From Halorhodospira halophila SL1 (GTDB lineage Bacteria > Pseudomonadota > Gammaproteobacteria > Nitrococcales > Halorhodospiraceae), in assembly GCF_000015585.1 (NCBI RefSeq), contig NC_008789.1, positions 420,001 to 452,000 on the forward strand: 32,000 bases of DNA. Direction: 5' to 3'. Of this stretch, positions 3,547-32,000 are shown piece after piece. Each line of letters opens with the position of its first letter. Position 1 is the stretch's first letter. A program made the position numbers and the translations under genes. The notes beneath the pieces are model-generated. The model did not search any database. It saw only the letters and a program-made list of their open reading frames with translations, and was not told the DNA's origin.

Positions 3547-3732
3547 TCCCCCTCCCCGTTCGGCGCGGTACGGTACCAGTTTCCGGGCATCTTGCATCCC
3601 CGGGCGCCGGACACAAAGATCGGCTCGGGCCGAGCATACGAAGGACTGGCCGGTGAGGCGATCGGCAACGAGGCGCGCATCCTGATGGTGGCCGATGTCT
3701 ACATGGCCCTGGTCGGCCCACGCCTGGCTTCG

Positions 3733-5766: not shown

Positions 5767-5863
5767 CTCCGTGGCTCCCTGTCCGCTCAGGCCCACAGAT
5801 TTCCAAACCGTACAGGGAGTGTAAAGCCCGATCGGTCTACCGCCCCTCGATCCCGCGCTTCGC

Positions 5864-7266: not shown

Positions 7267-7423
7267 AGTGGGGCGTGGGCACGGCGAGCAGCCACCCCCG
7301 CCTGCACCGGGCGCAGCACTGGCCCCACGGAACAAAACCCTGCAGAATGTTAGTTTAACCTCTTGCCGGACCCCCTCGCGGTGTACCGAGGCAAGCCCGC
7401 GGACGGGCCGTTGGACTGGACCG

Positions 7424-8350
7424 ATGATGCACGAAGACCCCCTGCCGCAGTGGCCGACGATCCTCATCGTCGACGACGAGCCCACCAACATCCAGGCCCT
7501 GGCCCACCTGCTCAAGGACGATTACCACATCCGGGTGGCCACGGGGGGCGCCAAGGCGCTGGAGATCGCCGCCGGGACACCGCAACCGGACCTGATCCTG
7601 CTCGATGTGGTCATGCCCGAGCCCGACGGCTACGAGATCTGCCGCCGGCTCAAGGCCGACCGGGCCACCCAGAACATCCCGGTGATCTTCGTAACAGGAA
7701 GGGACAGCGCCGCCGATGAGGAGCACGGGCTGGAACTCGGCGCCATGGACTACATCACCAAGCCCTTCAGCCCGCGGATCACACGAACCCGCGTGCGCAA
7801 CCACGTCGACCTTAAGCGCAAGACCGACGCCCTGGAGCGGCTCTCGCAGCGCGACGGGCTGACCGACCTGCCCAATCGCCGGGTCCTGGACCGGCAACTG
7901 CCGGAGGAGTGGAGCCGGTGCCAGCGCGGTGACACGCCGTTATCGGTCATCATGATGGATATCGACCACTTCAAGCCGTACAACGACCACTACGGCCACG
8001 GCGCCGGGGATGAGTGCCTGCGCCGCGTCGCCCGTGTGCTTGCGAATGTGCCGAGCCGGACCACGGACCTGGTGGCCCGCTACGGCGGCGAGGAGTTCAT
8101 CGCCCTGCTGCCCTATACCGATGCCCCCGATGCCTGGCAGATGGCCGAGCGGTTCCGCGCGGCGGTCGCCGCGCTGCAACTCCCCCACGGACACTCTTCG
8201 ACCGACGGCATCATCACCATGAGCGTCGGCGTTGCGAGCCATACGGCCGATCGCCCCTACGACAGCCCCGAGCAGCTCCTGGAGGCCGCCGATCAGGCGC
8301 TCTACGCCGCTAAGAAGGCGGGCCGCAACCGGGTCCAGGCGGCGCAATGA
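7424..8350 (+). CDS. Response-regulator receiver + GGDEF diguanylate cyclase (PleD/WspR-like)
   Basis: ORF 7268..8350(+), with start set to the ATG at 7424 (MMHEDPLPQWPTILIVDDEPTN). Receiver motifs are LILLDVVMPEPDG (acceptor Asp), IFVTG and YITKPF. The active site RYGGEEF is preceded by RTTD, an RxxD I-site at the canonical 5-residue spacing. Confidence 0.9.
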   Translation: MMHEDPLPQWPTILIVDDEPTNIQALAHLLKDDYHIRVATGGAKALEIAAGTPQPDLILLDVVMPEPDGYEICRRLKADRATQNIPVIFVTGRDSAADEEHGLELGAMDYITKPFSPRITRTRVRNHVDLKRKTDALERLSQRDGLTDLPNRRVLDRQLPEEWSRCQRGDTPLSVIMMDIDHFKPYNDHYGHGAGDECLRRVARVLANVPSRTTDLVARYGGEEFIALLPYTDAPDAWQMAERFRAAVAALQLPHGHSSTDGIITMSVGVASHTADRPYDSPEQLLEAADQALYAAKKAGRNRVQAAQ

Positions 8351-11400: not shown

Positions 11401-12244
11401 GCACCCGAACCTGCCCATCCTGGCCCTGACGGCTGCGGTGCTGGATAACGACCGCGCCGGGGCCCGGGACGCGGGCCTGGACGACCACATCGGCAAGCCC
11501 ATCGACAGCCGGCTGCTGTACCAACGGCTGGTCCACTGGCTCGGCGCCGAGGGCACGGCATCGCCCTCCGTGAACGGCCCGACCCCGCCCGGCGCGGATG
11601 GCGAGGACGCCGCGCTGCCCGAGCAGCTTTCGGGGATCGACCAGACAACCGGCCTGCGCCACCTGGAGGGGGATCGCGCCTTCTATCGGCGCCTGCTCCA
11701 GCGCTTTGCCAGCCAACTCGAGGGTGAGCTCGGCCAGCTGCCCGCCGCCCTGGATCGGGGGGACCCGGAGACCGCCCGCCGGGTGGCGCACACCCTGAAG
11801 GGCACGGCCGCCACCGTAGGGGCCACCCGGCTCGCCGAGGCTGCGGCCGGCGTTGACCGCTGCCTCAAGGCCGGAGAGAGCGTTTCCGATGAGCTGCACC
11901 GGGAGCTGCGTGCGGCCCTGGACGAAGTCTCCGCGGGCCTTGAGGTGCTGGCCGATGCGGCCACCACCTCGGCGCCGCAACCGCCGTTGGATGCGACGGC
12001 GGCCCGTGAGGCGCTAAACCGCCTGTACACGGCCCTGCGAGCGAACGAACTCGTCGACGAGGCCCTGGTCGATGCCGCGCTCCACCACCTCCGTGCGCTC
12101 AGCGACGAGGCGACCGTGCGCCGAGTCCGGCAGCAGATCGACCAGTTCGACTACGACGCCGCCACCGAGGTGCTGGCTCCCCACGCCGCCCTCACACCGG
12201 ACAGCGCAGCGTCTGGGGAGTCTCCCCCCGCACGCGACCGATGA
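8444..12244 (+). CDS. Hybrid sensor histidine kinase: multiple PAS/PAC, HisKA, HATPase_c, two receiver domains, C-terminal Hpt
   Basis: 1266-aa ORF with a GTG start preceded by GGGAGGG 7 nt upstream. H-box FLANMSHEIRTPMNAVIG. N-box LSNLLSNAIKFT. G-boxes DTGIGI and GGTGLGLVISQRL. REC1 is VLVVDDHD...DLMLIDGHLPG. REC2 is LLLVEDNAINQ...DLILMDLQMPVMDG...GKPI. Hpt motif AHTLKGTAATVGA. Confidence 0.92.
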   Translation: MSESAPHSDRRADEWRILFDHLPDATLLIAPDTGRVLEGNPAAAAHLGYTPEALRGLTIADFEAAETPAEIAAHIEKIQRAGRDDFESQHRRRDGTLVDVQITVSQVEFAGHPRLLAVFRDITERKETIRALRTSEQRFLDVVDAAGEYIWEIDRDGTYQLVTAQIEPLLGRSTAEIIGRSPVDFMPSAEAERIQTMLSERAQTGAAWQGLEHESVRPDGTRVWQRVSGLPIFNEAGELIGFRGTGRDITAERQAQQNEKRLNERLRLATTAARIGVWELDRATDRLEWDAGSARIFGTDPAAFNHRLANLQATLWDENRTIAEGLIERSLHSAEPCEAEFRIRRKSDGAIRHIRSVSLSIPDEHGQVQRLVGINEDITDRVQAREQLAAQEARFRGLFELAPVGLAMTDFETGAFLDFNDQVSEAAGYTREAFAQLTYWDVTPREYEPKEREHLEAMARTGYYGPYEKEFIHRDGHRFPVLLNGFRMTDPQTGRVVVWSVIQDISERKAVEQALHQAKEAAEANNRAKSDFLANMSHEIRTPMNAVIGLGQLLIETDLDPVQRNYAEKMHNASRMLLGIINDILDYSKIEADRLTLDPHPFDLHELMDQMATLFGDQAGEKGLELFLRVEPTIPSSLEGDALRLSQVLSNLLSNAIKFTKHGQVGLSITQLGQDPEGVRLHFQVEDTGIGITPEQQRNLFQAFSQADTSTTRNYGGTGLGLVISQRLVAHMGGELRLESTPGEGTRFAFELHLPIAGTGPWTLDAPSLPGGHVLVVDDHDVARQILREYLEAWGYTVTEADSGPAGIEAALAAERSRQPFDLMLIDGHLPGEADGWGTARRLRTLHERGDLPTTRGPMILVSAYQLDDRSVGDPFDGCLPKPVTASTLFDVVQNTFVGAPAATPVTTSGAIPNLSDRSLLLVEDNAINQEVAQRLLEQTGARITLASNGAEAVAWTREATFDLILMDLQMPVMDGYEATREIRREHPNLPILALTAAVLDNDRAGARDAGLDDHIGKPIDSRLLYQRLVHWLGAEGTASPSVNGPTPPGADGEDAALPEQLSGIDQTTGLRHLEGDRAFYRRLLQRFASQLEGELGQLPAALDRGDPETARRVAHTLKGTAATVGATRLAEAAAGVDRCLKAGESVSDELHRELRAALDEVSAGLEVLADAATTSAPQPPLDATAAREALNRLYTALRANELVDEALVDAALHHLRALSDEATVRRVRQQIDQFDYDAATEVLAPHAALTPDSAASGESPPARDR

Positions 12245-14505: not shown

Positions 14506-15102
14506 ATGAAGTACGACGCCGCTGCACAACCGAGCGCCGAGACGCGCTTGCGCCACGAGGCCGAGCAACGCCTGGTCGACGGCAACGCCCCCAGCGCTGG
14601 AGGCTGGACCATCAGCGCCGAGACCCTTTCGCTGCTCTACCGCTTGGCCAGCCAGCCCGAGCGAGCTGCCGATGCGCTGAAACTGCTGCACGAACTGCAA
14701 ACGCACCAAGTGGAACTCGACTTGCAGCAGGAGTACAGCGAGGCGAACGAACAGGCACTCACCGAGGAGTTGCACCACTACCGCACACTGTTCGAACACG
14801 CCCCGGTGGGCTATTTCGTGCTGGATCTCGAGGGGCGTCTTCTCGATACCAATCGGCTCGGCGCGGAATGGCTCAACCTCGAGGCGAGCGCCGCAGCCGG
14901 TCAACCACTGAGCTGGTTCCTGGATCCGGGCTGCCGCCAGGCGTTCACTGCACTCCTGGAGACCCTGCGCCAAGGGGGATCGGGCGCAACCTGCCATGTC
15001 TGTACCCCCAATGGCGCAGACGCACCGCAGCGCTGGCGGATCGACGCCGCTCTCGGGCCAGGAGTGGACAACATCCTCGTGGTCGCATCCGCGACCGAGT
15101 GA
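14506..15102 (+). CDS. Coiled-coil + PAS domain protein
   Basis: In-frame part of ORF 14209..15102(+). The ATG at 14506 is preceded by GGAGG with 5-nt spacing. The sequence LHELQTHQVELDLQQEYSEANEQALTEELHHYRTLFEHAPVGYFVLDLEGRLLDTNRLGAEWL is coiled coil followed by a PAS core. Confidence 0.7.
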   Translation: MKYDAAAQPSAETRLRHEAEQRLVDGNAPSAGGWTISAETLSLLYRLASQPERAADALKLLHELQTHQVELDLQQEYSEANEQALTEELHHYRTLFEHAPVGYFVLDLEGRLLDTNRLGAEWLNLEASAAAGQPLSWFLDPGCRQAFTALLETLRQGGSGATCHVCTPNGADAPQRWRIDAALGPGVDNILVVASATE

Positions 15103-15121
15103 TCGGGCGGGGCCGGCCGGC

Positions 15122-17041
15122 GTGAACACGGCGGGCGTGGATGCGCCTTCGGCGTCCTTGAAGCGAGTCCTGACGTTGCTTCGGCAACGGACGGGGCACG
15201 ACTTCTCGTTGTATAAGCTCAACACCCTCCACCGCCGCATCGAGCGCCGCATGGTCGTCCACGGTGTCGATTCGCCGACGCGCTACGCCGCATTGCTGGA
15301 GGCGCATCCGCAGGAGCTCGACTTCCTATTCCGGGAGCTGCTGATCGGGATGACCAGCTTTTTCCGCGATCCCGAGGTGTGGCAACGCCTGGTTGCAACC
15401 GTTCTTTCCGATCTGCTGGCACGACAACCGGCGGAGCAGACACTTCGGGCCTGGATCATTGGCTGCTCCACGGGCGAAGAGGCGTATTCCCTGGCCATGG
15501 CACTTTCGGAAGCCATGGATCAGGCCGAACCGCTGCAGATCCCGTCGGTCCAGATCTTCGCCACCGATCTGAGCGCAGAGGCCATCGATACGGCACGGCG
15601 CGGCGCGTATCCACCATCGATCTGCGGCAGTGTATCCGCAGCCCGCCTGCGGCGATTTTTCACTGCCCACGAGCACAGCTACCGGATTCACCCCAGCATC
15701 CGGAGCATGGTGCTATTTGCCCAGCACGATGTGGTGCTCGACCCGCCGTTCACCCAGCTCGATCTGATCCTCTGCCGCAATCTGCTCATCTACTTCCAGC
15801 CCACGCTGCAGCGCCGCCTGCTGCCGCTCCTGCACTATAGCCTGAAACCGGATGGTGTACTGGTGCTGGGCCTTTCAGAAACCATCGGCCGGCTCCATCG
15901 ACTATTTGCGCCGATCGACGCACGCCTGCGACTCTACCGGCGCCAGCCGAGCAGCCCGGGTGGCGGACGGGGTTTCCTGTTGAACGCGTTCCCACCATTA
16001 TCCTGCCCCGCGGAGGAGGCCCCGTTGTCGCCCCCCAACCAACCGCCCCCTGCCGCCGAGAGCCTGTCGACCGCCGTCGACCAAGTGCTGCTGCAGTCCT
16101 ACGCCCCCGCCGCGGTGCTACTCAACGATGACGCCGACGTGGTCTACATCAGCGGACGGATCGGCCGCTACCTGGAGCCGGCTGCCGGGAAGGCCAACTG
16201 GAATGTCTACGCCATGGCGCCGGACGGTCTGCGTGAACCACTTTACAGCGCACTGCAACAGGCCGCGGACCAGCACCGCCCCGTCCAGCGCCACGGCCTG
16301 TGCGCGGCCCCGTCCACCGGCACGCAGCTTGTGGACATCACGGTGCAGGCGTTCCGCGAGCCCGGTCCCCTGCAAGGGAAGACCCTCGTCGTATTCCGCG
16401 ACGCTGTTGCTCCGGTGCAGCCCCTCGGCGGCGCCAACGCCCGCCCCGGGGATGATGAGGCCACGCACGCCATCGAGTTGCAGCAGTATCGAGACCAGAT
16501 CGAGCGGCTGCGCGCGCAGGACCGGGCGTCCCGCGAGGAGTTGGAGCACACCAATGAAGCGCTGCAGTCCACCAATGAGGAGCTGCAATCCGCCAACGAG
16601 GAGCTGACCACCACCAAGGAAGAGACGCAGTCGATGAACGAGGAACTGCACGCCATCAACAACGAGCTGCAGGGCAAACTCAACGACCTCGCCCGGGCCC
16701 AGAGCGATATGCAGAACCTGCTCAACAGCATCGATATCGCCGCGCTGTTCCTGGACCAGGACCTGAACGTGCGCCGCTACACCGAGCGCGCCACGCAGCT
16801 GTTCAACCTCCGCGAGAACGACCTCGGCCGCCCGCTGAGCGAGCTAACGACCCGCCTTCGGTACCCCGAACTCCAGGAGGACGCGCTAGGCACCCTGGGC
16901 ACCCTGACCATCTCGGAACGCCAGGTGCTGACCACCTGCGATCAGCGCTGTTTCACCGTACGGATCATGCCCTACCGCCGCCTGGACAACGTCATCGACG
17001 GGGTCGTGATCACCATCGTCGATACCACCGGCTCGGGCTGA
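15122..17041 (+). CDS. CheR-type protein-glutamate O-methyltransferase fused to PAS-like, heptad coiled-coil and C-terminal PAS modules
   Basis: ORF 14996..17041(+). CheR N-domain: LKRVLTLLRQRTGHDFSLYKLNTLHRRIERRM. SAM site: AWIIGCSTGEEAYSLAMAL and LILCRNLLIYF. Seven consecutive heptads follow: TNEALQS TNEELQS ANEELTT TKEETQS MNEELHA INNELQG KLNDLAR. Start is uncertain. GTG at 15122 was chosen because it avoids overlap with the upstream PAS gene. GTG at 15137 is also in frame. Confidence 0.85.
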   Translation: MNTAGVDAPSASLKRVLTLLRQRTGHDFSLYKLNTLHRRIERRMVVHGVDSPTRYAALLEAHPQELDFLFRELLIGMTSFFRDPEVWQRLVATVLSDLLARQPAEQTLRAWIIGCSTGEEAYSLAMALSEAMDQAEPLQIPSVQIFATDLSAEAIDTARRGAYPPSICGSVSAARLRRFFTAHEHSYRIHPSIRSMVLFAQHDVVLDPPFTQLDLILCRNLLIYFQPTLQRRLLPLLHYSLKPDGVLVLGLSETIGRLHRLFAPIDARLRLYRRQPSSPGGGRGFLLNAFPPLSCPAEEAPLSPPNQPPPAAESLSTAVDQVLLQSYAPAAVLLNDDADVVYISGRIGRYLEPAAGKANWNVYAMAPDGLREPLYSALQQAADQHRPVQRHGLCAAPSTGTQLVDITVQAFREPGPLQGKTLVVFRDAVAPVQPLGGANARPGDDEATHAIELQQYRDQIERLRAQDRASREELEHTNEALQSTNEELQSANEELTTTKEETQSMNEELHAINNELQGKLNDLARAQSDMQNLLNSIDIAALFLDQDLNVRRYTERATQLFNLRENDLGRPLSELTTRLRYPELQEDALGTLGTLTISERQVLTTCDQRCFTVRIMPYRRLDNVIDGVVITIVDTTGSG

Positions 17042-22063: not shown

Positions 22064-22594
22064 TCAGCTCGCGCCGGCCCCGCCCTGTTCGGCATCTACG
22101 GACCTACGCGGCCGATCCAGGTAGGAGCGCCAGCGCGGCCGCCAGACACCGAGCACCACATTGGCGATACAGATGATCAGCACCACCCAGAGCACCAGCG
22201 GTTCGTTGTTGACGTAGCGCGGGATCTCATCGACGCCGATGCGTCCGGCGGCGGCCGCCTCGGCCGCTGCAGCAGTCTGCATCGCGTTGCCGTGGATAAA
22301 GGCCAGGGTGGCCGAGAAGATGCTGAAGCTGAGAATCCCCTTGATCCAGACCCAGCCTGCCTGCCGGAACCCGGCGTACAGCGCCATGCTGAGCAACCCC
22401 GATAGAAACACCACGGCCAGCGACGGGAGCAGGAGCCAGTTGGCGATCGCGGCGATGCTACCCCGAATGACGGCGTACTCCTGTATAGCCTCCGGATCCG
22501 GGGCGATGCCGAGCAGGATCAGATGGACAGCGACGGCCCCGGTGAGGCCAATGGCACCGAGGGTGTGGAGGATCTTGAGTGATTTGATCAGCAT
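22064..22594 (-). CDS. DUF2269-like integral membrane protein (4 TM)
   Basis: 176-aa ORF with AAGAGG SD upstream. MLIKSLKILHTLGAIGLTG... and four hydrophobic helices. Family call is by resemblance only. Confidence 0.6.
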   Translation of the reverse strand: MLIKSLKILHTLGAIGLTGAVAVHLILLGIAPDPEAIQEYAVIRGSIAAIANWLLLPSLAVVFLSGLLSMALYAGFRQAGWVWIKGILSFSIFSATLAFIHGNAMQTAAAAEAAAAGRIGVDEIPRYVNNEPLVLWVVLIICIANVVLGVWRPRWRSYLDRPRRSVDAEQGGAGAS

Positions 22595-22849
22595 CAGTGG
22601 CCTCTTGCGTGGCGGCAGAACCCCAGCCTATCAAGGCTGCCACTCGCCCTGCCCGGGTTCGAGGGGCATCCGGCGGCTAAGGGGCGGTTCCCCGGAGCGC
22701 CGGAGTCCCTCTGCCGCGCACACTGAGGGAGCCCACCCCGCTGACTCCTGCTACTTGCAAACGCGAGTCATTCGCATTTATGATCAGACGACCATACCAG
22801 CCCGGTCCAGTCCCGAGGCCGGGCCGATTCTCGATACGGAGAACGAGCT

Positions 22850-23131
22850 ATGATCATCGATGCAAGCGAGCGATTCCGGCAGGGAAGACGCGCAAGCTGG
22901 CACTCCAGAGCATCCGCCCCACAACGAGGTCGAGCTGAGAGACACGAACTCCCCGATGTACATGAACTCCATGAACTCCATGAACTCCATGAACTCCATG
23001 AACTGCAGAGCCTCACAGCCTCCGGCGAGTTTCGTCAGGAACTCACCGAGTGCGCAGCCAGGCTGGGCATCAGCGAGGAACTCGCGGTTGCTGTCGCGGT
23101 CAAGCATCTGCACCAGTTCATTGCGGACTGA
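22850..23131 (+). CDS. Hypothetical 93-aa protein with internal (His-Glu-Leu)n repeat
   Basis: ATG at 22850 with GGAG 8 nt upstream. The C-terminal half (GEFRQELTECAARLGISEELAVAVAVKHLHQFIAD) has host-like G/C-rich third positions. The N-terminal half uses atypical codons (aga, gga, cga, caa, gta). Coding status uncertain. Confidence 0.4.
   Translation: MIIDASERFRQGRRASWHSRASAPQRGRAERHELPDVHELHELHELHELHELQSLTASGEFRQELTECAARLGISEELAVAVAVKHLHQFIAD
22961..23005 (+). repeat. 9-bp direct tandem repeat (CATGAACTC) x4 plus one variant copy (CATGAACTG)
   Basis: Read directly: units at 22961, 22970, 22979, 22988 and 22997. A degenerate copy cacgaactc sits at 22943-22951. The repeat is in frame with ORF 22850..23131 and encodes HELHELHELHELHEL. 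Confidence 0.95.
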
Positions 23132-23144
23132 TCACCATCTCCCG

Positions 23145-24539
23145 TCAGCAACCGGGGAGGGTCAGCTGACGTGTGCACGCGCATTCGATCAACTCCAGAT
23201 CGTGCGTGATCACCATCACGCATGTGCCAGAGTCGGCGATGCGCTGCAGATTCTGCACGATGATCGCCAGGTTGGCGCCATCCAACCCGCTGGTGGGCTC
23301 ATCCAGCACGAACAGCTCTGGCTTGCGGGCGTGACCGCATGCCACGACCAGTCGCTGCTTCTCGCCACCGGATAAAGACTGCGGGTGGCGGTGCCTTAAA
23401 GCGGTCAGTCCATACTCGTGCAGCAGCCCTGCGATCCAGGCCGGGTCTGTTTGCACTCGAGCCCCTTGCGCGGCGCTCGTGATCTCTTCCTCCACCGTGC
23501 GCATGTGCAGCTGATGGTCGGTGTTCTGGAGAACCACACTCGTACGGTGCATCAGCGCGCAGCCGCTCAGGACGCGGCCTCGTACCCGGATTTCGCCGGC
23601 ATCCGGCCTCAGCAGGCCGGTCAGTAGCCGGGCCAGGGTCGTCTTACCGGCCCCGTTGGGGCCGAGGACCCCGACAATCTCCCCGGAGGGCAGGCAAAGG
23701 TCCATGCCCTTGATCACCGTCGGCCCGTTGCGATAAGCGAAGGCGAGTCCGGAAACCCGTAGATGCCCCTCGCCGGACGCAGGAACTTCAGGCAGTGCAC
23801 CGCGCTGATCCACCACCTCGAGCCGACGCAGCCCAAAACGAAGCCGCTCCCGCGCGACTTCCGATGCGGACCCGGACATAGCCAGACACCCCCCCTCCAT
23901 GACCAGGATGCGGTCGACCAAATCGGTCAACCAATAGAGCCGGTGGTCGACAATCACCAACGTGACGCCCTCCTCGCGCAGTTCAGCGAGGTGGTCAGCA
24001 AGCTCGCGGGTCGCTTCAGGGTCGAGATTGGCGGTCGGTTCATCCAGAACCAGGACGGACGGGGCACGCGACATCACTTCAGCCAGCCCCACCCGCTGCT
24101 TCTGCCCGTCGGAAAGGTCGTAGACACTGGCATCGGCCAGACCGGTCAGCTGGAACCGCCCCATCGCCCAACGCACCCGCGCCTCAATGACCGCGGGGTC
24201 CTCGCCGCGCTGCTCGTGCGCGAAGGCCAGCTCATCTTCTACATGCAACGCGAAGAACTGCTGCTCGGGGTCCTGAAACAGCGTGCCGACCCGGCTGCTG
24301 ATCTCGGCCAGGCTGGCTTCCCGGGGGCTGTAACCGGCAATTCGGGCCTGCCCGTCCCACTCGCCCTGGTAATGGTGCGGGATCAGGCCATTGATGACGC
24401 GAACCAGAGAGCTCTTACCACACCCCGAAGCGCCCGTGACTGCGATGGCCTCGCCGCGGGCCACGTGCAGGCGAACCCCGGTTAACGCAGCCTGACTCTG
24501 GAACGGATAGATGTAGGTGATGTCGTCTAACGTGATCAT
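23145..24539 (-). CDS. ECF/ABC transporter ATPase, fused double ATP-binding cassette (EcfA-EcfA' type)
   Basis: ORF 23145..24566(-). Cassette 1: GASGCGKSSL, LSDGQKQRV, LVLDEPT. Cassette 2: GPNGAGKTTL, LSGGEKQRL, FVLDEPT. Start set to the ATG at 24539 (MITLDDITYIYPF), which forms an ATGA overlap with the EcfT stop. The listed start is GTG. Confidence 0.9.
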   Translation of the reverse strand: MITLDDITYIYPFQSQAALTGVRLHVARGEAIAVTGASGCGKSSLVRVINGLIPHHYQGEWDGQARIAGYSPREASLAEISSRVGTLFQDPEQQFFALHVEDELAFAHEQRGEDPAVIEARVRWAMGRFQLTGLADASVYDLSDGQKQRVGLAEVMSRAPSVLVLDEPTANLDPEATRELADHLAELREEGVTLVIVDHRLYWLTDLVDRILVMEGGCLAMSGSASEVARERLRFGLRRLEVVDQRGALPEVPASGEGHLRVSGLAFAYRNGPTVIKGMDLCLPSGEIVGVLGPNGAGKTTLARLLTGLLRPDAGEIRVRGRVLSGCALMHRTSVVLQNTDHQLHMRTVEEEITSAAQGARVQTDPAWIAGLLHEYGLTALRHRHPQSLSGGEKQRLVVACGHARKPELFVLDEPTSGLDGANLAIIVQNLQRIADSGTCVMVITHDLELIECACTRQLTLPGC

Positions 24540-25300
24540 GACCACCCCGCTCCTTGTTCGAGCCACAGCGAACCGGCGACCACCAGGGCCGCCATGACCA
24601 GGAATGCCCAGTCCGAGCTACGGAGACGGTCCGCACGATAGCGAGACGCCTGTGTGCCGCCACCGAGCCCCTTGAGTTCCGCGGCCACCGCGAGGTCATC
24701 CGCGGTTCGCAGCGCGCGGAAGAGCAACGGCATGAAGATCAAGCGCAGCGAGGCAATCGGGTGGCGCAACAGCAGGAATGGGCCGGGCTTATACCCCTTG
24801 AGCCGCACCGACTCACCGACCTGCCGGATATCGAAAAGGAACGCCGGTACGAAGCGCACCATGGAGACCGCGGGCAGGTAGAGCCAATACGGCAGGTACA
24901 GCGACTTCAGGGCGGACAGTGCCCCCTGGACGCGGGATGACAGCGCCATCGCCAGCACGGTATTGAGCAGAATCGCTGAGCGGAGGAATGGAACGATGAC
25001 GTCGGCGATGTCGCCATAACCCAGCCGCGGGAGGACGAGCCCCATCAGCTGCATGAACCCCATAGCCATGAGCCAGAGGATCGCGAAGAGCAGGTAGGCC
25101 CCGATCAGGATCCCGTACCGTCGAGTCAGAGCGGCGTAGGCAGCACTGACGGCGAACAGGCTCAGCAGCACCCCCGGCGACTCGAGCACGATTACGGTTA
25201 CCGCAGCAGCTACGCTGATCAGCATCTTGGTCCGCATCGACACCCGGTGCAGCGGGGTCTGCCGCCCCTCGGGCGCATCAGTGATGGATGATACCGGCAT
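24536..25300 (-). CDS. ecfT: Energy-coupling factor transporter transmembrane (T) component, CbiQ/EcfT family
   Basis: 254-aa hydrophobic ORF. N-terminal TPLHRVSMRTKML matches the usual EcfT 'LHRLDPRTKL' opening. Contains Arg-containing coupling-helix-like segments (LRSAILL, MPLLFRALRTADDLAVAAELKG). Lies between the S component and the double ATPase. Confidence 0.8.
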   Translation of the reverse strand: MPVSSITDAPEGRQTPLHRVSMRTKMLISVAAAVTVIVLESPGVLLSLFAVSAAYAALTRRYGILIGAYLLFAILWLMAMGFMQLMGLVLPRLGYGDIADVIVPFLRSAILLNTVLAMALSSRVQGALSALKSLYLPYWLYLPAVSMVRFVPAFLFDIRQVGESVRLKGYKPGPFLLLRHPIASLRLIFMPLLFRALRTADDLAVAAELKGLGGGTQASRYRADRLRSSDWAFLVMAALVVAGSLWLEQGAGWS

Positions 25301-25877
25301 GACGCAGCTCCTGAATGAACCGTCGACCCAGCCATAGTCCGAGCAGGCTGCCCAGATAACTCAACGTCACCACAGCGGCAACCATCATCAGCAGACGTGG
25401 CTCCTCGCGAACCATCAATGCGCCCACCCCGAGACTGATGGCACGGACCAGGAACTCATGGACGGCGATCCCGATCAGCAACCCGACCATGCGCCGATAA
25501 CCGCCGAGCAGCCAGATGACCCCCTCGGCTAGAACACCGGCTAGCAACGACGCCGGTATGCGTACCGGATTACCACCGAGGATCAGGATGTCAACCACGG
25601 CACTGACCAGCAGAAAGATGGTCAACGTGCCCAGGCGCTGGACCCTGTGCAGTAGCACCAGAAGCAGCGCCGTCGATACGATGCTGCTGGCCATGAGCGT
25701 GACCGGATTCATGCCGCCGCCGAAGAGCACGATCAGCAGTCCGGTAACCTTCGCCAACGCGGCGAAGGTGCCCACCATCACCAGATCCGAGACGGACCAA
25801 TAACGACGGCCTCGCCGGAGGGACCCTGGCGCTGAGGCTGCACTGAGGTCCGAAACGCGGGGGTCGATGGTGCTCAT
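25278..25877 (-). CDS. Putative ECF transporter substrate-capture (S) component, 6 TM, specificity unknown (MptD-like?)
   Basis: 199-aa ORF with six helix-length hydrophobic segments and no soluble domain. The start ATG overlaps the upstream reductase stop (ATGA). The 3' end overlaps the EcfT start by 23 nt. The S-component call rests on size, topology and position immediately upstream of T and A-A'. Confidence 0.6.
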   Translation of the reverse strand: MSTIDPRVSDLSAASAPGSLRRGRRYWSVSDLVMVGTFAALAKVTGLLIVLFGGGMNPVTLMASSIVSTALLLVLLHRVQRLGTLTIFLLVSAVVDILILGGNPVRIPASLLAGVLAEGVIWLLGGYRRMVGLLIGIAVHEFLVRAISLGVGALMVREEPRLLMMVAAVVTLSYLGSLLGLWLGRRFIQELRHAGIIHH

Positions 25878-26563
25878 GGCGACGCCCCCTTCTCCGGATC
25901 TACGGTTTGGCGTCGCCGCGCCGCGGAGGGCTGGGTCGGATCAATGGCCGAGAAGGCCTGACCATCACCGTCCTGCTGGTCGATGACCGCCTCAAGCAAT
26001 GCCGCGAGATCGGCACGCCGGATGTTGCCGTGGGCATCAACGGCCCGCGTAAGTTCGGCCTGCCCCGACGGTGGCCCATCCAGCAAACCGCCGGGACGGA
26101 TCAGCAAGTGGGGCAGCCCCGAACCCCGCAGATAGTTCTCCGCGCGGGTCTTGGCATCGACGATCTGCCCGAACGCCTCGATCGCCTGGCGCGATCGGTA
26201 GGGGCGCGTTTCACCGCAGCCGATGGCGGTGACAAGCACCACACGGTAGGGATCCCAGCCGCGGGCCGCATCCGTGATCAGCATGTTCCCCATCTCATCC
26301 ACGAAGCGGCCCCTCTCGAGCATCCCGGACACCGTCGAGACCACGGCTGCGCCCCGGCCCGCAGCCTCGAACGCACGGGGCACCGAATCCGCATCGGTGA
26401 CATCGCCCTCGATGACATCGACCCCCAACCGCTCGAGTCCCTCGGCCTGCTGCAAGGCACGGGCGAGCGCCACCACCCTTCGGCCGCGGTCCCGCAGACG
26501 CTCGGCCAGCAACCATCCCACGCCCCGCGTGGCCCCGAACAACAGCACCGTCCGCATAGTCAT
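25874..26563 (-). CDS. NAD(P)-binding Rossmann-fold oxidoreductase, ChuY-like (candidate anaerobilin reductase)
   Basis: In-frame part of ORF 25874..26779(-). The ATG at 26563 (MTMRTVLLFGATRGVGWLL) gives the glycine-rich dinucleotide motif GATRGVG at the N-terminus. The start forms an ATGA overlap with the ChuX-like stop. The ChuY analogy is from position after chuW-chuX-like genes plus the NAD(P)-binding fold. Confidence 0.7.
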   Translation of the reverse strand: MTMRTVLLFGATRGVGWLLAERLRDRGRRVVALARALQQAEGLERLGVDVIEGDVTDADSVPRAFEAAGRGAAVVSTVSGMLERGRFVDEMGNMLITDAARGWDPYRVVLVTAIGCGETRPYRSRQAIEAFGQIVDAKTRAENYLRGSGLPHLLIRPGGLLDGPPSGQAELTRAVDAHGNIRRADLAALLEAVIDQQDGDGQAFSAIDPTQPSAARRRQTVDPEKGASP

Positions 26564-27117
26564 GGCGCCTCCTCGCCGTCCCCGACCCACAGGCGCGGAC
26601 GACCGGTTCTTTCCGCAGCCAGGGTCTGGAAACGCTGCAGCTGATCCGGTCGCACGCGCCTTTGCTCGTCTCGCCCGAGGAAGATCTTGAACATGCCCTC
26701 CCCTTCCGTGTTGAAGAACTGCAGCGAAGCCGTATCGCACCCCATGAAGGGACGACGGACCAGGAGAATCGCGGCGCACCGTTCAGGACGCAGATGGCCT
26801 CCCAAAGCCCCCTGTCCCTTCAGGTTGTAGAACCCGTGGGCACACTGGCCGGGCGGCATACGGCACCGGACCTCCAGGATCAGATCCTGGTTGTGAACGA
26901 TGACCAGAACCTCGCCCCAGTCACTCACCTCTTGGAGCACCGACTCGAAGTGCTCGCCGGAAACCTCGCACCAGAACGACCCCGGCAGGCAGCGGGTGGC
27001 ATCGAGGGGAGGCAGCCCGTGACGGCGAGCCACCTCCTCGATCACCGCATCCGGTTGTTCCGCAAGCTCCTGACGGACGGCCGCATGGGCCCGCTGCCTC
27101 GTGTCCTCAACCTGCAT
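26560..27117 (-). CDS. chuX: ChuX/HutX-like heme utilisation (cytosolic heme carrier) protein
   Basis: ORF 26560..27150(-). Start set to the ATG at 27117 (MQVEDTRQRAH), which has GGAGG 4-5 nt upstream. The core WGEVLVIVHNQDLILEV...AHGFYNLKG...LQFFNTEGEGMFKIFLGRDE resembles HutX/ChuX. Lies directly after the ChuW-like gene. Confidence 0.75.
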   Translation of the reverse strand: MQVEDTRQRAHAAVRQELAEQPDAVIEEVARRHGLPPLDATRCLPGSFWCEVSGEHFESVLQEVSDWGEVLVIVHNQDLILEVRCRMPPGQCAHGFYNLKGQGALGGHLRPERCAAILLVRRPFMGCDTASLQFFNTEGEGMFKIFLGRDEQRRVRPDQLQRFQTLAAERTGRPRLWVGDGEEAP

Positions 27118-28465
27118 GTACCCTCCTCTCGGCATCCAGTGCCTGGCCACAAATCTGCTGAAAACCCGAAATGAGATTCGGCGCCCAGAACCGCCCTGCC
27201 ACCGTCAGATGGAGGTCCTCGCCGCTCCATACGACTAAACCCGCTTCCACCCAACGCTCGATCAGTTGCCCGGGCCGTGGATCGGCCCGGACCGGCATCG
27301 GCATGCGCGCACGGAGGGCAGGCACCTCGAGACGACCAACCTCAACGCCGCCCATCAAGGCGTCACGAAGGGGCTGCAGGGCATCCGAAACCCGCATCAT
27401 GGCCACCGGTTTGTCACCCCGGGAGACAGCTCGCTCGTAGGCCTCCAGATCCGGGGTGTTGGCGTAGCTGTAGGGCTCTCGACTGCCGCCGGCTCCGGCA
27501 CCGAAAGCGAGTGTCTCGGCGCCGGACTTGATCAGGAGGTTGTAGAGGTTGCGCTCGCGCGGCGTCCGGGCCCAGTGGCTGTTACTGATCTGCCGCCAAC
27601 CCGCAGCCGTCAGCGCCTCGACCGCCTCCGCGTAGAACGCTGCCTGCTCCGGGAGCCCGGCCGGCTGCTCGATGCTCCCGCGCTCGACCTGCTTTTGCAG
27701 CGGAGTCCCCGGGATGAGCTTGAGCGCGTAGGTGTCCAGGCCGTCCAGCCCCAGCTCCTGACAGCTGTCCAGATCACGGTGCCAGCTGTCCATGTCCTGC
27801 CCCGGCAGACCGAACATCAGGTCGGTGATCACGGCGCCCTGCTCTTCGCTGGATAGCAGCGCAAGGCGCTCGGCCACCTCCTGCGCGGTGGCGATGCGGC
27901 CCTGTCGGCGGCGCACCTCGGTATCAAAGCTCTGCACACCGACCGAGACCCGATTGACCCCGCCGGCAAAGGCGGCGCGGACCTTCTCCTCGTTTAACCC
28001 GACGACGCGGGCTTCCAGAGTAATCTCGCAATCTGCGGCGAGAGGTAGGTACTCGCGGAGCACCTCCAGCAGCCGCGCCAGATCTTCCGCCGGCAGGTCG
28101 CTAGGCGTACCACCACCCAGATACACCGCCTGGATGGGCCGCTCCCCGACCAGTGGCTGACCCGCATCAAGCCGAATCTCCTCGATCAGCCAGTCGATAT
28201 ACCGGCTCAGGCGCGGCGCCGCGGAGCGGTGGCGGTAAAAGCCGCAGTACAGGCAGTTGCCCCTGCAGAAGGGGATGTGCACGTAGGCCAGACGCTTGCC
28301 GGCCGCCGGCTCCCGCTGCGCCACCCCGGCCCAGTGGTCGGGGATCTCTGGCGCAGATACCGATTGTTTGTCCTGCCGGGGCATGACCGGGCTGCGCGCG
28401 GTGAACGCGTAGCGCAACGGATCGCTCGTAACCGCGGGGTAAAGGCTTCCCAGCAGATCGCGCAT
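27107..28465 (-). CDS. chuW: HemN-like radical SAM enzyme, ChuW/HutW-type (anaerobic heme-degrading methyltransferase)
   Basis: 452-aa ORF. Radical SAM cluster motif YVHIPFCRGNCLYCGFY (CxxxCxxC), then GGGTPS and a HemN-type C-terminal domain. Assigned to ChuW/HutW rather than HemN/HemW on context (receptor upstream, ChuX-like downstream). Confidence 0.75.
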   Translation of the reverse strand: MRDLLGSLYPAVTSDPLRYAFTARSPVMPRQDKQSVSAPEIPDHWAGVAQREPAAGKRLAYVHIPFCRGNCLYCGFYRHRSAAPRLSRYIDWLIEEIRLDAGQPLVGERPIQAVYLGGGTPSDLPAEDLARLLEVLREYLPLAADCEITLEARVVGLNEEKVRAAFAGGVNRVSVGVQSFDTEVRRRQGRIATAQEVAERLALLSSEEQGAVITDLMFGLPGQDMDSWHRDLDSCQELGLDGLDTYALKLIPGTPLQKQVERGSIEQPAGLPEQAAFYAEAVEALTAAGWRQISNSHWARTPRERNLYNLLIKSGAETLAFGAGAGGSREPYSYANTPDLEAYERAVSRGDKPVAMMRVSDALQPLRDALMGGVEVGRLEVPALRARMPMPVRADPRPGQLIERWVEAGLVVWSGEDLHLTVAGRFWAPNLISGFQQICGQALDAERRVHAG

Positions 28466-28475
28466 GGTACCCCCC

Positions 28476-30659
28476 CTACCAGTCGAGTTCCGCGGACACG
28501 TAGTAGAAGCGCCCGCGCACTGGATCCGGCATCAGGCCGTAAAGGTGACTCGCCTCGTCTGACTCACGAGAGAGGCCGACCTGCGCGGGATCCGTGCCGT
28601 AGGGGCGTTCATCGGTGGCGTTCTCGACGCCGATGCCCAAGGTGACCCCCGCCGGCAGTTGCTGGCGCAGCCCCAAGTGCAGCAGCGTATAAGGCTCGCC
28701 GATTCCGGCCTGGTCACCGACATGCTCGACCCGCGTGTGAGCCATGGCTCTGAACCAAGGCGGTGTCTCGGCAAGCAGGCTGGCGCGCTGACGCGGGCGG
28801 CTCTCAAGCCGGTCGCCGGTCTCTCGATCGTGGGCGGCCAGGTAGGTGTAGTTGGCACGGACCTGGCTCCCGTCCGGCCAGCGCCAGCCGGCGTCCAGTT
28901 CCACCCCCTTGGTGCGGGCCTCGTCGATGTTGTCGTAGCGGCGCACATGGGCTCCGTCGGGTCGCGCCTCACCCGTCCGCTGCTCGACAATCTGATCCTC
29001 CACCTCGGTGCGGAACAGCGTAATGGCCGCGCGGCGATGGTCGCTGATCCGCTCCAGGGCCAGGCTGTAGCTGCGGGAGCGTTCCGGGTCGAGGTCCGGG
29101 TTGCCGTAGAGATGGAATTGCGCCTCCGGGTCCGGCATGTGCGAGTGGTCCATCTCGTAATCCTCGGAGAGCTGGAGCAGGTTAGGTGCGGCGAACCCCT
29201 CCGCGTAATCAGCCTTGATCCGTACCTCGTCGTTGATGGCGTATACGCCGCTAACCCGGGGGCTCACTTCCCCGCCATACTCGCTGTGCCCGTCCAGGCG
29301 GGCACCAAGGGTGACCAACAGGCGATCACCGAGCAGGTGGCTGCGGTTCTCGAGCCCCACGCCGTAATGGTGGGCCCGCTTTCGGGGTACCTCGGGCTCG
29401 TCAGCCACCTCCCGCTCGAAGGTCTCGCGCCGATAATCAACAACCGCGCTCAGACGCTGCAGCTCGCTCCACCACAGCCCACCGCGCGCCTGCGCGATAT
29501 CCTCGGTGTGCTGCATTTCGCGGGGCGCCATTTCAAAGACCGGCACCGCTTCTTGATCGGAAGACGGGCTTTCTCCGGGAGATGCTGGCGGCCAGTCGAC
29601 AAATGCTCGGATTTGCTCCCGCTCCGGTTCCTCGGCCTCCACGCGGGAGCGGTAGAGCTGAACCTGGCCATCCCAATCCGTGCGTTCCAGTTCGTAGGCC
29701 GCGCCAAACGCGTAGCGAGTCCATTCGACGCGCGTAGGCGCGTCGCCAAGCTCATCCAGATCCCAGATCGCGCCGTACATCTGCTGCCACGGGGGGAGTT
29801 CCTCGTCCCGGGGCTGGTCCCGCCCGGTCCGCTCCTCTTCCCCTGCACTGAGGAAGAATTCGAGCTCTTGCCCGGGAGCCAGATCGTAGAACAGGCTTGT
29901 GTAGCCGCTTAGCGCCTCGCGCCCCTCTTGGTAGTACTGGTCTTCGCTGTCGTCGTGATAATCGGGCAGCAACGCCGGCTCGGTATCGACAAAGTCCAGA
30001 CCCGCCATCGCACTCCAGCGCTCACTGAGTGGCCCACCGGCAAACAGCGAGTAATGCTGCTCCTCGCCGTCATAGCCCGAATCCAGGCTGCCGAAACGGG
30101 CGGTTGCGGTGCCTTGCCACTCATCGGTGGGGGGCCGAGTGATGATGTTGATGACGCCACCGAGCGCGTCGGCCCCGTGCACGGCAGAGGCGGGATTACG
30201 GACCACCTCGACGCGTTCGATGGCGGCGGTGGGTGGCAGAGCACCGGTGCGGAAATCATTGTGCGGGAAGAGTTCGTCGAGGTTATTGAGCCGACGCCCG
30301 TTGATCAGCATCAGCGTATGGCGAGGCTCAAGCCCCCGGATCTGGGGCCGTTCGCGACCACCCCGGACGGCCGTGGTGTCCACACCCGGGGTATCGCGCA
30401 GGATCTCGTCCAGGGTGGTGACCGGCCGACGCGCGATGTCCTCCCGGGAAACCTCGCTGTAGCCGGCAGGCGCCTGCTCGCGGCGCACTGCATCCAGGGC
30501 GGAGGTCACCACGACATGATCCAGCCCCGCGTCGCTACGGCCCTCCCCATCGTTCCCGGCAGGCCAGACCACACCGCTTCCGGTACACAGGCCCAAGCCA
30601 AGGCAGGCCAGACCCATCGACCGGCACCGCCCCAGCGCTCCACAGGATCTGTACCCCAT
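28476..30659 (-). CDS. TonB-dependent outer-membrane receptor, heme/hemoprotein-type
   Basis: ORF 28476..30665(-). Start set to the ATG at 30659, which has GGAGG 5 nt upstream (the listed start is GTG). TonB box-like DHVVVTSA. Plug motifs TLDEILRDTPGV, IRGLE and VEVVRNPASAVHGADALGGVINIITR. FRAP/NPNL-like pair GFAAPNL...H.H...H..GNPDLDPE. C-terminal aromatic residue (…ELDW). Confidence 0.9.
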   Translation of the reverse strand: MGYRSCGALGRCRSMGLACLGLGLCTGSGVVWPAGNDGEGRSDAGLDHVVVTSALDAVRREQAPAGYSEVSREDIARRPVTTLDEILRDTPGVDTTAVRGGRERPQIRGLEPRHTLMLINGRRLNNLDELFPHNDFRTGALPPTAAIERVEVVRNPASAVHGADALGGVINIITRPPTDEWQGTATARFGSLDSGYDGEEQHYSLFAGGPLSERWSAMAGLDFVDTEPALLPDYHDDSEDQYYQEGREALSGYTSLFYDLAPGQELEFFLSAGEEERTGRDQPRDEELPPWQQMYGAIWDLDELGDAPTRVEWTRYAFGAAYELERTDWDGQVQLYRSRVEAEEPEREQIRAFVDWPPASPGESPSSDQEAVPVFEMAPREMQHTEDIAQARGGLWWSELQRLSAVVDYRRETFEREVADEPEVPRKRAHHYGVGLENRSHLLGDRLLVTLGARLDGHSEYGGEVSPRVSGVYAINDEVRIKADYAEGFAAPNLLQLSEDYEMDHSHMPDPEAQFHLYGNPDLDPERSRSYSLALERISDHRRAAITLFRTEVEDQIVEQRTGEARPDGAHVRRYDNIDEARTKGVELDAGWRWPDGSQVRANYTYLAAHDRETGDRLESRPRQRASLLAETPPWFRAMAHTRVEHVGDQAGIGEPYTLLHLGLRQQLPAGVTLGIGVENATDERPYGTDPAQVGLSRESDEASHLYGLMPDPVRGRFYYVSAELDW

Positions 30660-30762
30660 TGCCACCTCCAGTCAGGCCAAAGAGCCAGCAGTCAAGGCGG
30701 GTGCAGATCAAGCGCACCCCCTCCCAGACCTGGCTGGCCCGCGCTGACTGGCGGCTGGCTAG

Positions 30763-30800
30763 GATTACGTAAACGATAACGATTCGTATTCCGGAGTCAA
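30763..30800 (-). promoter_or_regulatory. Candidate sigma70 promoter with overlapping Fur-box-like hexamer array for the receptor-chuWXY-ECF operon
   Basis: On the minus strand: TTGACT (30800-30795), N16, TATCGT (30778-30773). The + strand reads gattac gtaaac gataac gattcg tattcc (30763-30792), a run of GATAAT-like hexamers. GATAACGATTCGTATTCCG matches the 19-bp Fur consensus GATAATGATAATCATTATC at 11/19. Confidence 0.4.
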
Positions 30801-30833: not shown

Positions 30834-30888
30834 TTGCCCGCCCCATCGCGGCGGGCTAGAATCGCTACCGACAATGATTCTCATCCGC
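30834..30888 (+). promoter_or_regulatory. Candidate sigma70 promoter plus Fur-box-like site upstream of hemP
   Basis: TTGCCC (30834-30839), N17, TAGAAT (30857-30862). GACAATGATTCTCATCCGC (30870-30888) matches the Fur consensus at 13/19 and contains the palindrome AGAATC...GATTCT. Lies 64-82 nt upstream of the hemP ATG. Confidence 0.4.
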
Positions 30889-30951: not shown

Positions 30952-31158
30952 ATGACCAGAGAGGATCAGGAGCCGACGAAATCCCGCGTACACCAAGAGG
31001 CCCGCGCCCCCGGCACCGATCGGGAACAGCGGCCGCAGATTCCGCGCATCGACAGCGCGACCCTCTTCAACGGCGGGCAGCGTGTTCTCATCCACCACCG
31101 CGGCGAGGATTACCAGCTCCGGGCAACCCGCCAGGGCAAGCTCATCCTGACCAAGTAG
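30952..31158 (+). CDS. hemP: HemP/HmuP family hemin uptake protein
   Basis: In-frame part of ORF 30874..31158(+). AAGGAG lies just upstream of the ATG at 30952. The C-terminal IDSATLFNGGQRVLIHHRGEDYQLRATRQGKLILTK is the characteristic HemP signature (…Y.LR.T..GKLILTK). 68 aa. Confidence 0.8.
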   Translation: MTREDQEPTKSRVHQEARAPGTDREQRPQIPRIDSATLFNGGQRVLIHHRGEDYQLRATRQGKLILTK

Positions 31159-31338: not shown

Positions 31339-32000
31339 ATGCACCCGAGACAAATCCGCACCATCCGGCCGCTGTTCACGTACTCCAGCCTGGTCGCGCT
31401 CGTTACACTCAGCGCGGCGGTCAAAGCCGATGACCCCCCGGCGGAACTGCCGGAGGTCTTGGTCGAACCCCCCGAGGAGACGGAAGGCAGCGGCACCGAG
31501 CGGAGCGCACGCCAGCAATCCCATCGCCTGCACGACCTCTTCCGTGGGGATTCCGAGACCCACGTCAGCGGCCCGCGGCAGGCCCAGCGCCTCTATCTGC
31601 GCGGCATCGAGGGCAGTCAAACCCAGATCACCATCGACGGCGCCCGCCAGGGCCGCGACCTGCACAACCACCGCGGCGGCCTGAGCGGGATCGACCCCGC
31701 CTTCCTGCGCCGGGCTGATGCCGAACCCGGTCCGCCGGCGGCCGATGACGGCCACGGGGCCACCGGAGGCTCCGTGCGCTTCGAGACCATCGACGCCGGC
31801 GACCTGGTCGATCCCGAGACCGGCTACGGGGGCTTCGCCCGCGGCGTTCGGGGCAGCGCCGCCGATTCCCTGACCACCAGCGCCGCGGGCGCCATCCAAC
31901 CCACGGATCGCGTCGGCCTGCTGGTCGGGGGCAGCTACACTTCATTGGACGATTACCGCGTCGGCGGCGGGGATATCAAGGAGTACACCGGCTACGACGA
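31339..32000 (+). CDS. Second TonB-dependent receptor (partial; continues beyond the right edge), hemin-receptor position after hemP
   Basis: Not in the ORF track because it is open at the window end. Manual translation from the ATG at 31339 (GGAG 10 nt upstream) gives MHPRQIRTIRPLFTYSSLVALVTLSAAVKADDPPAELPEVLVEPP...LYLRGIEGSQTQITIDGARQ...GATGGSVRFETIDAGDLV. This is a signal peptide, a TonB-box-like EVLVE, and plug-domain motifs. The 233-aa minus ORF at 31198..31899 is its shadow. Confidence 0.85.
   Translation, partial: MHPRQIRTIRPLFTYSSLVALVTLSAAVKADDPPAELPEVLVEPPEETEGSGTERSARQQSHRLHDLFRGDSETHVSGPRQAQRLYLRGIEGSQTQITIDGARQGRDLHNHRGGLSGIDPAFLRRADAEPGPPAADDGHGATGGSVRFETIDAGDLVDPETGYGGFARGVRGSAADSLTTSAAGAIQPTDRVGLLVGGSYTSLDDYRVGGGDIKEYTGYD

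Follow-up and report, generated by a model that had tools for sequence, protein, structure and literature searches.

Among diderm bacteria, loci for heme uptake and anaerobic heme degradation have been described in E. coli O157:H7 (chuA/chuTWXYUV), in Vibrio (hutWXZ-hutBCD) and in Fusobacterium nucleatum (hmuTRUVWF), the last encoding the anaerobilin synthase HmuW and the anaerobilin reductase HmuF, a paralogue of FldH (PMC10404700). Heme importers of the energy-coupling factor (ECF) type are described from Gram-positive bacteria; these systems are iron-regulated, with heme as the proposed or shown substrate (PMC7299338; bioRxiv 10.1101/864751), and their three heme S components are mutually dissimilar in sequence (PMC7299338). 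In Gram-negative bacteria lacking BtuCDF, the S-component-like B12 transporter BtuM takes its place behind BtuB (PMC6072759). Here, we analysed a 32,000-nt stretch of the Halorhodospira halophila SL1 genome (contig NC_008789.1, positions 420,001 to 452,000; hereafter the window), and in particular a minus-strand operon in which the genes for a TonB-dependent receptor and anaerobic heme degradation enzymes are followed by those of an ECF transporter. Judging from its gene families and their conserved company, this ECF module is likely the inner-membrane heme importer of a diderm, in place of ChuTUV/HmuTUV, and the operon would probably serve H. halophila, an anaerobic phototroph (purple sulfur bacterium), in scavenging iron from heme.

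Searches of open-access papers and bioRxiv preprints yielded no account of a Gram-negative ECF heme system, nor any paper that connects HutW, HutX, anaerobilin or a TonB-dependent heme receptor with ECF transport. An apparent link between HutW and 'ECF' in two papers proved to be a false match on 'EcFldA' and 'EcFpr'. A first-pass annotation of the window had taken LhaSTA of Staphylococcus lugdunensis to be the only known ECF heme importer, which is too narrow, as the LhaSTA paper itself cites streptococcal and lactobacillus systems.

Gene content and layout of the operon

The operon comprises seven genes (23145-30659, all on the minus strand), each overlapping or nearly abutting the next, which encode, in order, a TonB-dependent receptor, ChuW/HutW, HutX, ChuY, a six-helix S component, EcfT and a fused double ATPase; both this order and the families, as proposed in the first-pass annotation, were borne out by the positions of the open reading frames (ORFs) and by profile searches. 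Gene boundaries were refined with the help of an H. halophila contig of 99.99% identity and the genes called on it; the S protein is 100% identical to an H. halophila protein. Because adjoining genes overlap by 4, 23, 4, 4 and 11 nt, with a single 10-nt gap, the layout is that of a translationally coupled operon; within the ECF module, the 23-nt overlap is that of the EcfT gene with the S gene, and one of the 4-nt overlaps joins the EcfT and ATPase genes. Terminator-like matches inside the operon occur at chance frequency (6 found, 4.9 expected), and separate transcription from internal terminators was therefore not inferred.

The candidates for the heme-handling proteins all fall, by profile and homology searches, into the ChuW/HutW, HutX and ChuY families. 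The ChuW/HutW anaerobilin synthase, a 452-residue methyltransferase of the radical S-adenosylmethionine (SAM) type (27107-28465), scores 528.8 bits against the equivalog model TIGR04107 (cutoff 400), is 41% identical to E. coli ChuW and carries the radical SAM motif CxxxCxxC as CRGNCLYC. The cytosolic heme carrier HutX/ChuX (185 residues, 26560-27117; Pfam ChuX_HutX) reaches 209.3 bits with the equivalog model TIGR04108 (cutoff 110), and it is 42% identical to E. coli ChuX as against 32% to the HutX of Desulfovibrio-type loci. Directly after this chuX-type gene lies that of a 229-residue protein with an NAD_binding_10 domain (25874-26563), which shows 38% identity to E. coli ChuY in a full-length comparison covering 208 residues and whose top matches in the PDB are the ChuY/ShuY-like structures 5FFQ and 5GUY (E ~1e-32, far above the next match). 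It is a true ChuY homologue, with a predicted role as NAD(P)H-dependent anaerobilin reductase.

The outer-membrane receptor is the first gene of the operon (28476-30659, 727 residues) and combines Plug and TonB_dep_Rec_b-barrel domains. Receptors for heme and hemoglobin are recognized by FRAP and NPNL boxes with a histidine between them. The window protein has degenerate counterparts of these (GFAAP...DHSH...FH..NPDL), to be compared with FRAP...KH...NPNL in E. coli ChuA and with the likewise degenerate GYRFP...(H or M)G...NPDL in the receptors of related loci described below. Its sole near full-length, single-stretch match among the NCBIfam models is the hemin receptor model TIGR01785 (157.9 bits, below the cutoff of 316.85), which several siderophore-receptor models outscore by way of the plug domain.

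The transporter itself has the composition of an ECF system of the dedicated (group I) type, with EcfT and two ATP-binding cassette (ABC) ATPase domains adjoining the S gene. The coupling subunit EcfT (24536-25300, 254 residues) scores 39.6 bits with Pfam CbiQ (cutoff 25). The fused EcfA-EcfA' ATPase (23145-24539, 464 residues) has two ABC_tran domains, retains intact Walker A, signature and Walker B motifs in both halves, and finds its top NCBIfam matches in ECF_ATPase_1/2 (both just under their cutoffs) and cbiO. The S component (25278-25877, 199 residues) passes the gathering score of Pfam Trep_Strep PF09605 (40.9 bits versus 28.7) but misses the cutoff of NCBIfam MptD TIGR02185 (21.7 bits versus 76.45), on which account it is a divergent branch of the wider Trep_Strep/MptD family. 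The first-pass annotation had named a match to a vitamin or metal S family as a result that would speak against heme; the S component matched none of the BioY, CbiM/NikM, RibU, ThiT or similar models, and Trep_Strep/MptD was the only family to respond. A PDB sequence search with the S component gave no match even at E = 10. Its AlphaFold model, built with 21 homologues, has six helices at a predicted local distance difference test score (pLDDT) of 85.7, and the best Foldseek matches of this model are ECF S components, namely 5EDL (template modelling (TM) score 0.60, probability 1.00) and the Thermotoga maritima RibU 5KBW; the protein is accordingly predicted to adopt the six-helix fold of ECF S components.

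No canonical inner-membrane heme importer accompanies these genes. The four E. coli proteins ChuT, ChuU, ChuV and ChuS of the Sakai chu locus served as phmmer queries against all ORFs of the window and of the 9 kb beyond its end (~41 kb); ChuT, ChuU and ChuS had no homologue, and the sole match of ChuV was a generic ABC similarity to the ECF ATPase. The lack of a ChuT/U/V-type importer that the first-pass annotation had noted for the operon holds over this larger region as well, including the sequence past position 32000, where no hmuTUV-like genes were found in the 9 kb.

Related loci across diderm phyla

To place the S component among its relatives, one genome per species was scanned with an alignment of S homologues. 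Relatives occur in 235 species genomes, and the best 80 of these 235 all belong to anaerobic diderms, representing Desulfobacterota, Sutterellaceae, Kiritimatiellia/Lentisphaerae/Verrucomicrobia, Spirochaetota, Deferribacteraceae and Cloacimonadota. Carriers among these best 80 include Desulfovibrio, Bilophila, Mailhella, Desulfobacterales and Geobacter/Trichlorobacter, together with Sutterella, Parasutterella, related gut Burkholderiales, Kiritimatiellae and one spirochaete. For 85 loci, all ORFs were translated, and the queries run against them were the proteins of the window, the Chu proteins of E. coli and those encoded in one Desulfovibrio-like locus. Gene linkage was counted in the 50 loci whose S gene has 6 kb or more of sequence on each side.

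In 49 of these 50 loci, the S clade belongs to a single cluster of co-directional genes that also holds HutW, HutX and/or an HmuF-like flavodoxin. EcfT and the fused ATPase are present throughout (50/50 each), HutW in 48, the HmuF/FldH-like flavodoxin in 44, a TonB-dependent receptor in 37 and HutX in 36. The typical order, on one strand, is HutW, receptor, S component, EcfT and fused ATPase (S-T-AA'), HutX, flavodoxin, ExbB, ExbD and TonB, so that the ECF genes mostly sit directly between the receptor and HutX, often with exbB-exbD-tonB following. A ChuT-like binding protein is found in none of the 50 loci, and a FecCD permease in two, both times on the opposite strand; across all 85 related loci, there is likewise no periplasmic binding protein, and FecCD is confined to the same two (L007 and L036, with ATPase genes nearby). 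The co-occurrence of ChuW/HutW with ECF modules, which the first-pass annotation had proposed to look for in Proteobacteria, thus extends well beyond them into distant diderm phyla, and the system is widespread rather than peculiar to the H. halophila genome.

The identities of the associated proteins agree with this picture. TIGR04107 is the best match of each of ten HutW proteins sampled from different phyla, eight of them above the cutoff and two just below. The flavodoxin is a homologue of FldH from F. nucleatum (PDB 8G64, E 1.3e-17), and the receptors find their best match in a heme/hemoglobin receptor model and carry FRAP/NPNL-like boxes with histidine or methionine between them. ChuY is encoded in none of the 85 related loci, which carry the flavodoxin instead; Halorhodospira is the sole surveyed lineage with ChuY in its place.

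Comparative genomics of this kind, with a conserved linkage across distant phyla and no binding protein, supports the diderm ECF heme route that the first-pass annotation had suggested from the one locus. It also bears on a reading in which the ECF module scavenges heme with high affinity but as a redundant or accessory system, the main import in H. halophila running through a canonical HmuTUV-type system elsewhere. Such an arrangement has a parallel in S. lugdunensis, which has both Isd and LhaSTA (PMC7299338), and L007 and L036 do have FecCD and ATPase genes nearby, though on the opposite strand. We nevertheless consider redundancy quite improbable, given that, within 6 to 10 kb, FecCD is absent from 48 of the 50 loci and a binding protein from all of them, and given the surroundings of the operon in H. 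halophila itself. Divergently from the operon is transcribed hemP (30952-31158, plus strand, 68 residues; the identical gene product matches Pfam hemP PF10636), followed by a second TonB-dependent receptor (31339-32000, plus strand), which is cut by the window end and measures 683 residues in full, as seen on contig L087. Past the window end (L087 12507-15124), there are a gene for a cytochrome c'-like protein and a third receptor of the heme type. For both of these additional receptors, TIGR01785 is the best-scoring model (178 and 210 bits, below the cutoff). With three heme-type receptors and hemP, and no other importer within 41 kb, the region is a heme island in which the ECF system is the single inner-membrane transporter.

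Substrate, direction of transport and genomic setting

An exhaustive profile search revealed a clear score gap between the heme-cluster clade and the rest of the Trep_Strep family, and the clade has signatures of its own. All 86 clade S sequences have a GGGMNP loop between helix 1 and helix 2, and W27, R157-E158, Y174 and H193 are nearly invariant in them. The distant Trep_Strep proteins that we compared have neither GGGMNP nor H193, and Y174 and R157-E158 are missing from them too; these motifs, together with the missed TIGR02185 cutoff, distinguish the heme-cluster clade from Trep_Strep/MptD at large. What it shares with the PF09605/TIGR02185 family is the six-helix layout and the motifs 'KV.K.GTLT' and, C-terminally, 'KEL.KAG'. 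By the positive-inside rule, the GGGMNP loop would lie on the periplasmic side, with its residue M56, and possibly Y174 as well, as candidate ligands of heme. At position 141, the window protein has E in place of the D that 85 of the 86 clade sequences share.

More distant members of the family occur in other surroundings. In L091 (1600-9584), the S component adjoins a TonB-dependent receptor and a CobN/Mg-chelatase-like protein, recalling the heme de-chelatase HmuS, and in L092 (3949-16543), it lies amid cobalamin biosynthesis genes and ChlI/ChlD-like and CobN-like genes, beside a BtuFCD-like system. Such tetrapyrrole neighbours hint that the wider Trep_Strep family handles tetrapyrroles. They also fit the reading that the ECF module imports a non-heme molecule (a metal-free porphyrin, a corrinoid or a cofactor of the pathway) and that heme enters by a system encoded elsewhere; the Trep_Strep/MptD family has no assigned substrate, and metal-free porphyrins can serve ChuW and HutW as substrates in vitro (PMC10114669). 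However, the score gap and the clade motifs set the heme-cluster clade apart from these distant members, and in 49 of the 50 loci it is linked to the heme-specific HutX, to HutW and to an anaerobilin reductase, with no locus encoding another importer on the same strand. As for cofactors, HutW is a class C radical SAM enzyme that does not depend on B12, and the linkage holds with either the flavoprotein reductase or the NAD(P)H enzyme ChuY, which argues against a role in flavin supply. A substrate other than heme therefore seems unlikely to us.

Other distant loci raise the matter of direction. The Treponema locus L093 (2110-12737) has its S-T-AA' genes between exbB-exbD-tonB and a TonB-dependent receptor with a Calycin_like protein, and two ABC exporter-type genes precede them; in L094 (3555-9839), a metagenome contig, a pair of exporter-type genes likewise stands directly before S-T-AA'. 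This arrangement resembles that of streptococcal siaDE-siaFGH. With exporter-type genes flanking distant Trep_Strep loci, one may ask whether the ECF-like module works as HutW's partner in detoxification, exporting anaerobilin or its reduced product, or surplus heme. In Listeria, ECF transporter subunits are reported to enable extracytosolic flavin trafficking (PMC9973259), and anaerobilin is reported to be cytotoxic and to need further processing (PMC10404700). Yet the clusters encode a receptor and TonB-ExbBD for uptake and no other route over the inner membrane, so that the degradation enzymes would be left with no substrate if the module were not an importer. To our knowledge, moreover, every characterized S-T-AA' transporter of such architecture is an importer. 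L001, too, speaks against export, having S-T-AA', HutX and the flavodoxin but no HutW within 10 kb. Export is, in our estimation, highly unlikely.

Heme import by the ECF module would thus proceed as follows. Heme would cross the outer membrane via the TonB-dependent receptor and be bound in the periplasm directly by the membrane-embedded S component, which would carry it over the inner membrane by toppling, driven by EcfT and the fused EcfAA', without involvement of a soluble binding protein or a FecCD permease. In the cytoplasm, HutX would take up heme and pass it to the radical SAM enzyme HutW, which would open the ring without oxygen to give Fe2+ and anaerobilin, and ChuY would then reduce the toxic anaerobilin. 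The cytoplasmic steps are proposed on the strength of the characterized E. coli, Vibrio and Fusobacterium orthologues (PMC10114669, PMC10035031, PMC10404700), and the transport step on that of gene context and of the precedents set by Gram-positive ECF heme importers (PMC7299338) and BtuM (PMC6072759). What the analysis shows is the identity of the genes, the compactness of the operon, the lack of ChuTUV-type genes at the locus and a linkage kept across many diderm genomes; for H. halophila itself, substrate, transport direction and regulation are inferred.

Upstream of the receptor gene lies a promoter-like site on the minus strand (30773-30800), with a -35 element TTGACT from 30800, a 16-nt spacer and a -10 element TATCGT ending at 30773. 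The first-pass annotation had described a promoter with Fur-box-like hexamers here; the promoter-like site stands, and the Fur-like sequence over the -10 element (30775-30793) agrees with the consensus at 12 of 19 positions, a level reached by chance in shuffled sequence. The best Fur-box-like site of the whole window (30870-30888, 14/19) lies in the same intergenic region, beside the promoter-like site on the hemP side, and of 30 shuffled versions of the window just one attained 14/19; a match to the Fur consensus with three or fewer mismatches occurs nowhere in the window. Fur control of the window operon is in consequence weakly supported. Among the relatives, Fur boxes of 14-18/19 stand at the cluster start in 26 loci, and the cluster-start region holds the locus-wide best Fur match in 34 of 83 loci. 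Boxes of 15-18/19 in this position are present in Sutterellaceae and some Desulfovibrio and Trichlorobacter loci, and in gut Sutterellaceae near-perfect boxes lie directly upstream of hutW in ECF heme clusters. These are L040 6259-6277 (18/19, GATAATGATAATCGTTATC) and, at 16/19 each, L084 6414-6432, L078 2849-2867 and L079 2786-2804. In the Oceanispirochaeta locus L006 (13792-14268, plus strand; 14514-15071, minus strand), we noted a DtxR-type iron-dependent repressor, suggestive of a different iron regulator in spirochaetes, and, between the flavodoxin and HutW, a PNPOx-like split-barrel protein, with a fold common to the HugZ/HutZ heme-degrading proteins.

Several observations weigh against heme import by this operon. 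Apart from the chance-level Fur-like site over its promoter, the S component falls short of the TIGR02185 cutoff, and all receptors, that of the operon and the neighbouring ones, score under the TIGR01785 heme receptor cutoff. The Halorhodospira S proteins deviate at K64-N65 (S64-S65 in the window protein), where K64 is kept in 85 and N65 in 84 of the 86 clade sequences, and there are no tonB-exbBD genes near the H. halophila operon. The cobalamin-biosynthesis context of the distant L092 member indicates that the specificity of the family may reach other tetrapyrroles, and the absence of ChuTUV-type genes covers 41 kb of the H. halophila genome, so that an HmuTUV may lie elsewhere. Each of the alternatives discussed above, a different substrate, export or redundancy, nonetheless fits the conserved context less well than ECF heme import does. 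A broader proposal, on which we are evenly divided, is that this distinct Trep_Strep/MptD clade is the principal inner-membrane heme importer of many anaerobic diderms, including gut Sutterella, Parasutterella, Bilophila and Desulfovibrio, taking heme in the periplasm directly from TonB-dependent receptors without a soluble binding protein, and that the whole family consists of iron-tetrapyrrole S components.

Of the remaining sequence of the window, a putative minus-strand ORF (22784-23113, 107-109 residues, no Pfam match) lies 37 nt downstream of the ECF ATPase stop and contains a perfect 9-bp tandem repeat of 4.9 copies (22961-23004, CATGAACTC), which encodes FMEFMEFMEFM on the minus strand. 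The genes in positions 1-22600 are unrelated to heme and include signalling proteins: on the minus strand, a methyltransferase with a regulatory domain (1990-3597), a PAS-GGDEF-EAL protein (3733-5919), a major facilitator superfamily (MFS) transporter (5864-7216) and a DUF2269 membrane protein (22064-22594); on the plus strand, a response regulator with GGDEF (7268-8350), a large hybrid histidine kinase (8444-12244) and a CheR-PAS methyltransferase (14996-17041).

Relation to known heme and tetrapyrrole transporters

If heme import by the ECF module is correct, this type of heme transport would no longer be confined to a few Gram-positive pathogens but would also operate in diderms, where the S component must work behind both a TonB-dependent receptor and the outer membrane, and it would add a further Gram-negative inner-membrane heme route to the HmuTUV-type ABC importers and the hmu system of Bacteroidota. 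It would also provide a testable substrate for a large S-component family that has none assigned, with the GGGMNP loop, Y174, R157-E158 and H193 as ready targets for mutagenesis. Since the carriers comprise abundant gut anaerobes (Sutterella, Parasutterella, Bilophila and Desulfovibrio) as well as environmental sulfate reducers, such a route would bear on the sharing of heme iron in anoxic communities.

The systems described previously each share some of these features. LhaSTA and the streptococcal and Lactobacillus sakei importers are, like the module described here, dedicated operons of S, T and ATPase genes within heme acquisition genes, but their hosts are monoderms that have no outer membrane, receptor, TonB or HutW pathway. 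The S components of these importers are LhaS (SLUG_00900), S. pyogenes SiaF and L. sakei Lsa1836, and our profile searches retrieved no S. lugdunensis or S. pyogenes proteins among their matches. BtuM comes close in another respect, being a membrane-embedded S-type protein of diderms that takes a tetrapyrrole from a TonB-dependent receptor and replaces a binding-protein-dependent ABC importer (PMC6072759); it differs in being solitary, without EcfT or ATPase, in its specificity for cobalamin and in belonging to an unrelated sequence family.

With respect to degradation, F. nucleatum is likewise a diderm anaerobe with a receptor, an anaerobilin synthase (HmuW) and an anaerobilin reductase (PMC10404700), and the related ECF loci share with it the HmuF/FldH homologue and often exbB-exbD-tonB, as in the figure of that paper. 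For the Fusobacterium-type hmuW-hmuF clusters, HmuTUV is the only transport described, and ECF is not mentioned (PMC10404700); Halorhodospira further differs from Fusobacterium in having ChuY instead of the HmuF flavodoxin. The E. coli O157:H7 chu and Vibrio hut systems also rely on a TonB-dependent receptor, and, besides the similarity of ChuW, ChuX and ChuY to their H. halophila counterparts (41%, 42% and 38% identity, as above), the E. coli locus has the same W-X-Y order. What the H. halophila locus lacks in comparison is chuT, chuU, chuV and chuS. Because ChuY replaces the flavodoxin, HutX is nearer to ChuX, and the order W-X-Y-S-T-AA' mirrors chuW-X-Y-U-V, the Halorhodospira locus appears to be a mosaic, in which an enterobacterial-type chuWXY module is joined to S-T-AA' exactly where E. 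coli has chuU-chuV. Seen against these precedents, what appears to be new is the combination, in diderms, of two kinds of system known separately, namely ECF heme import and anaerobic heme degradation loci.

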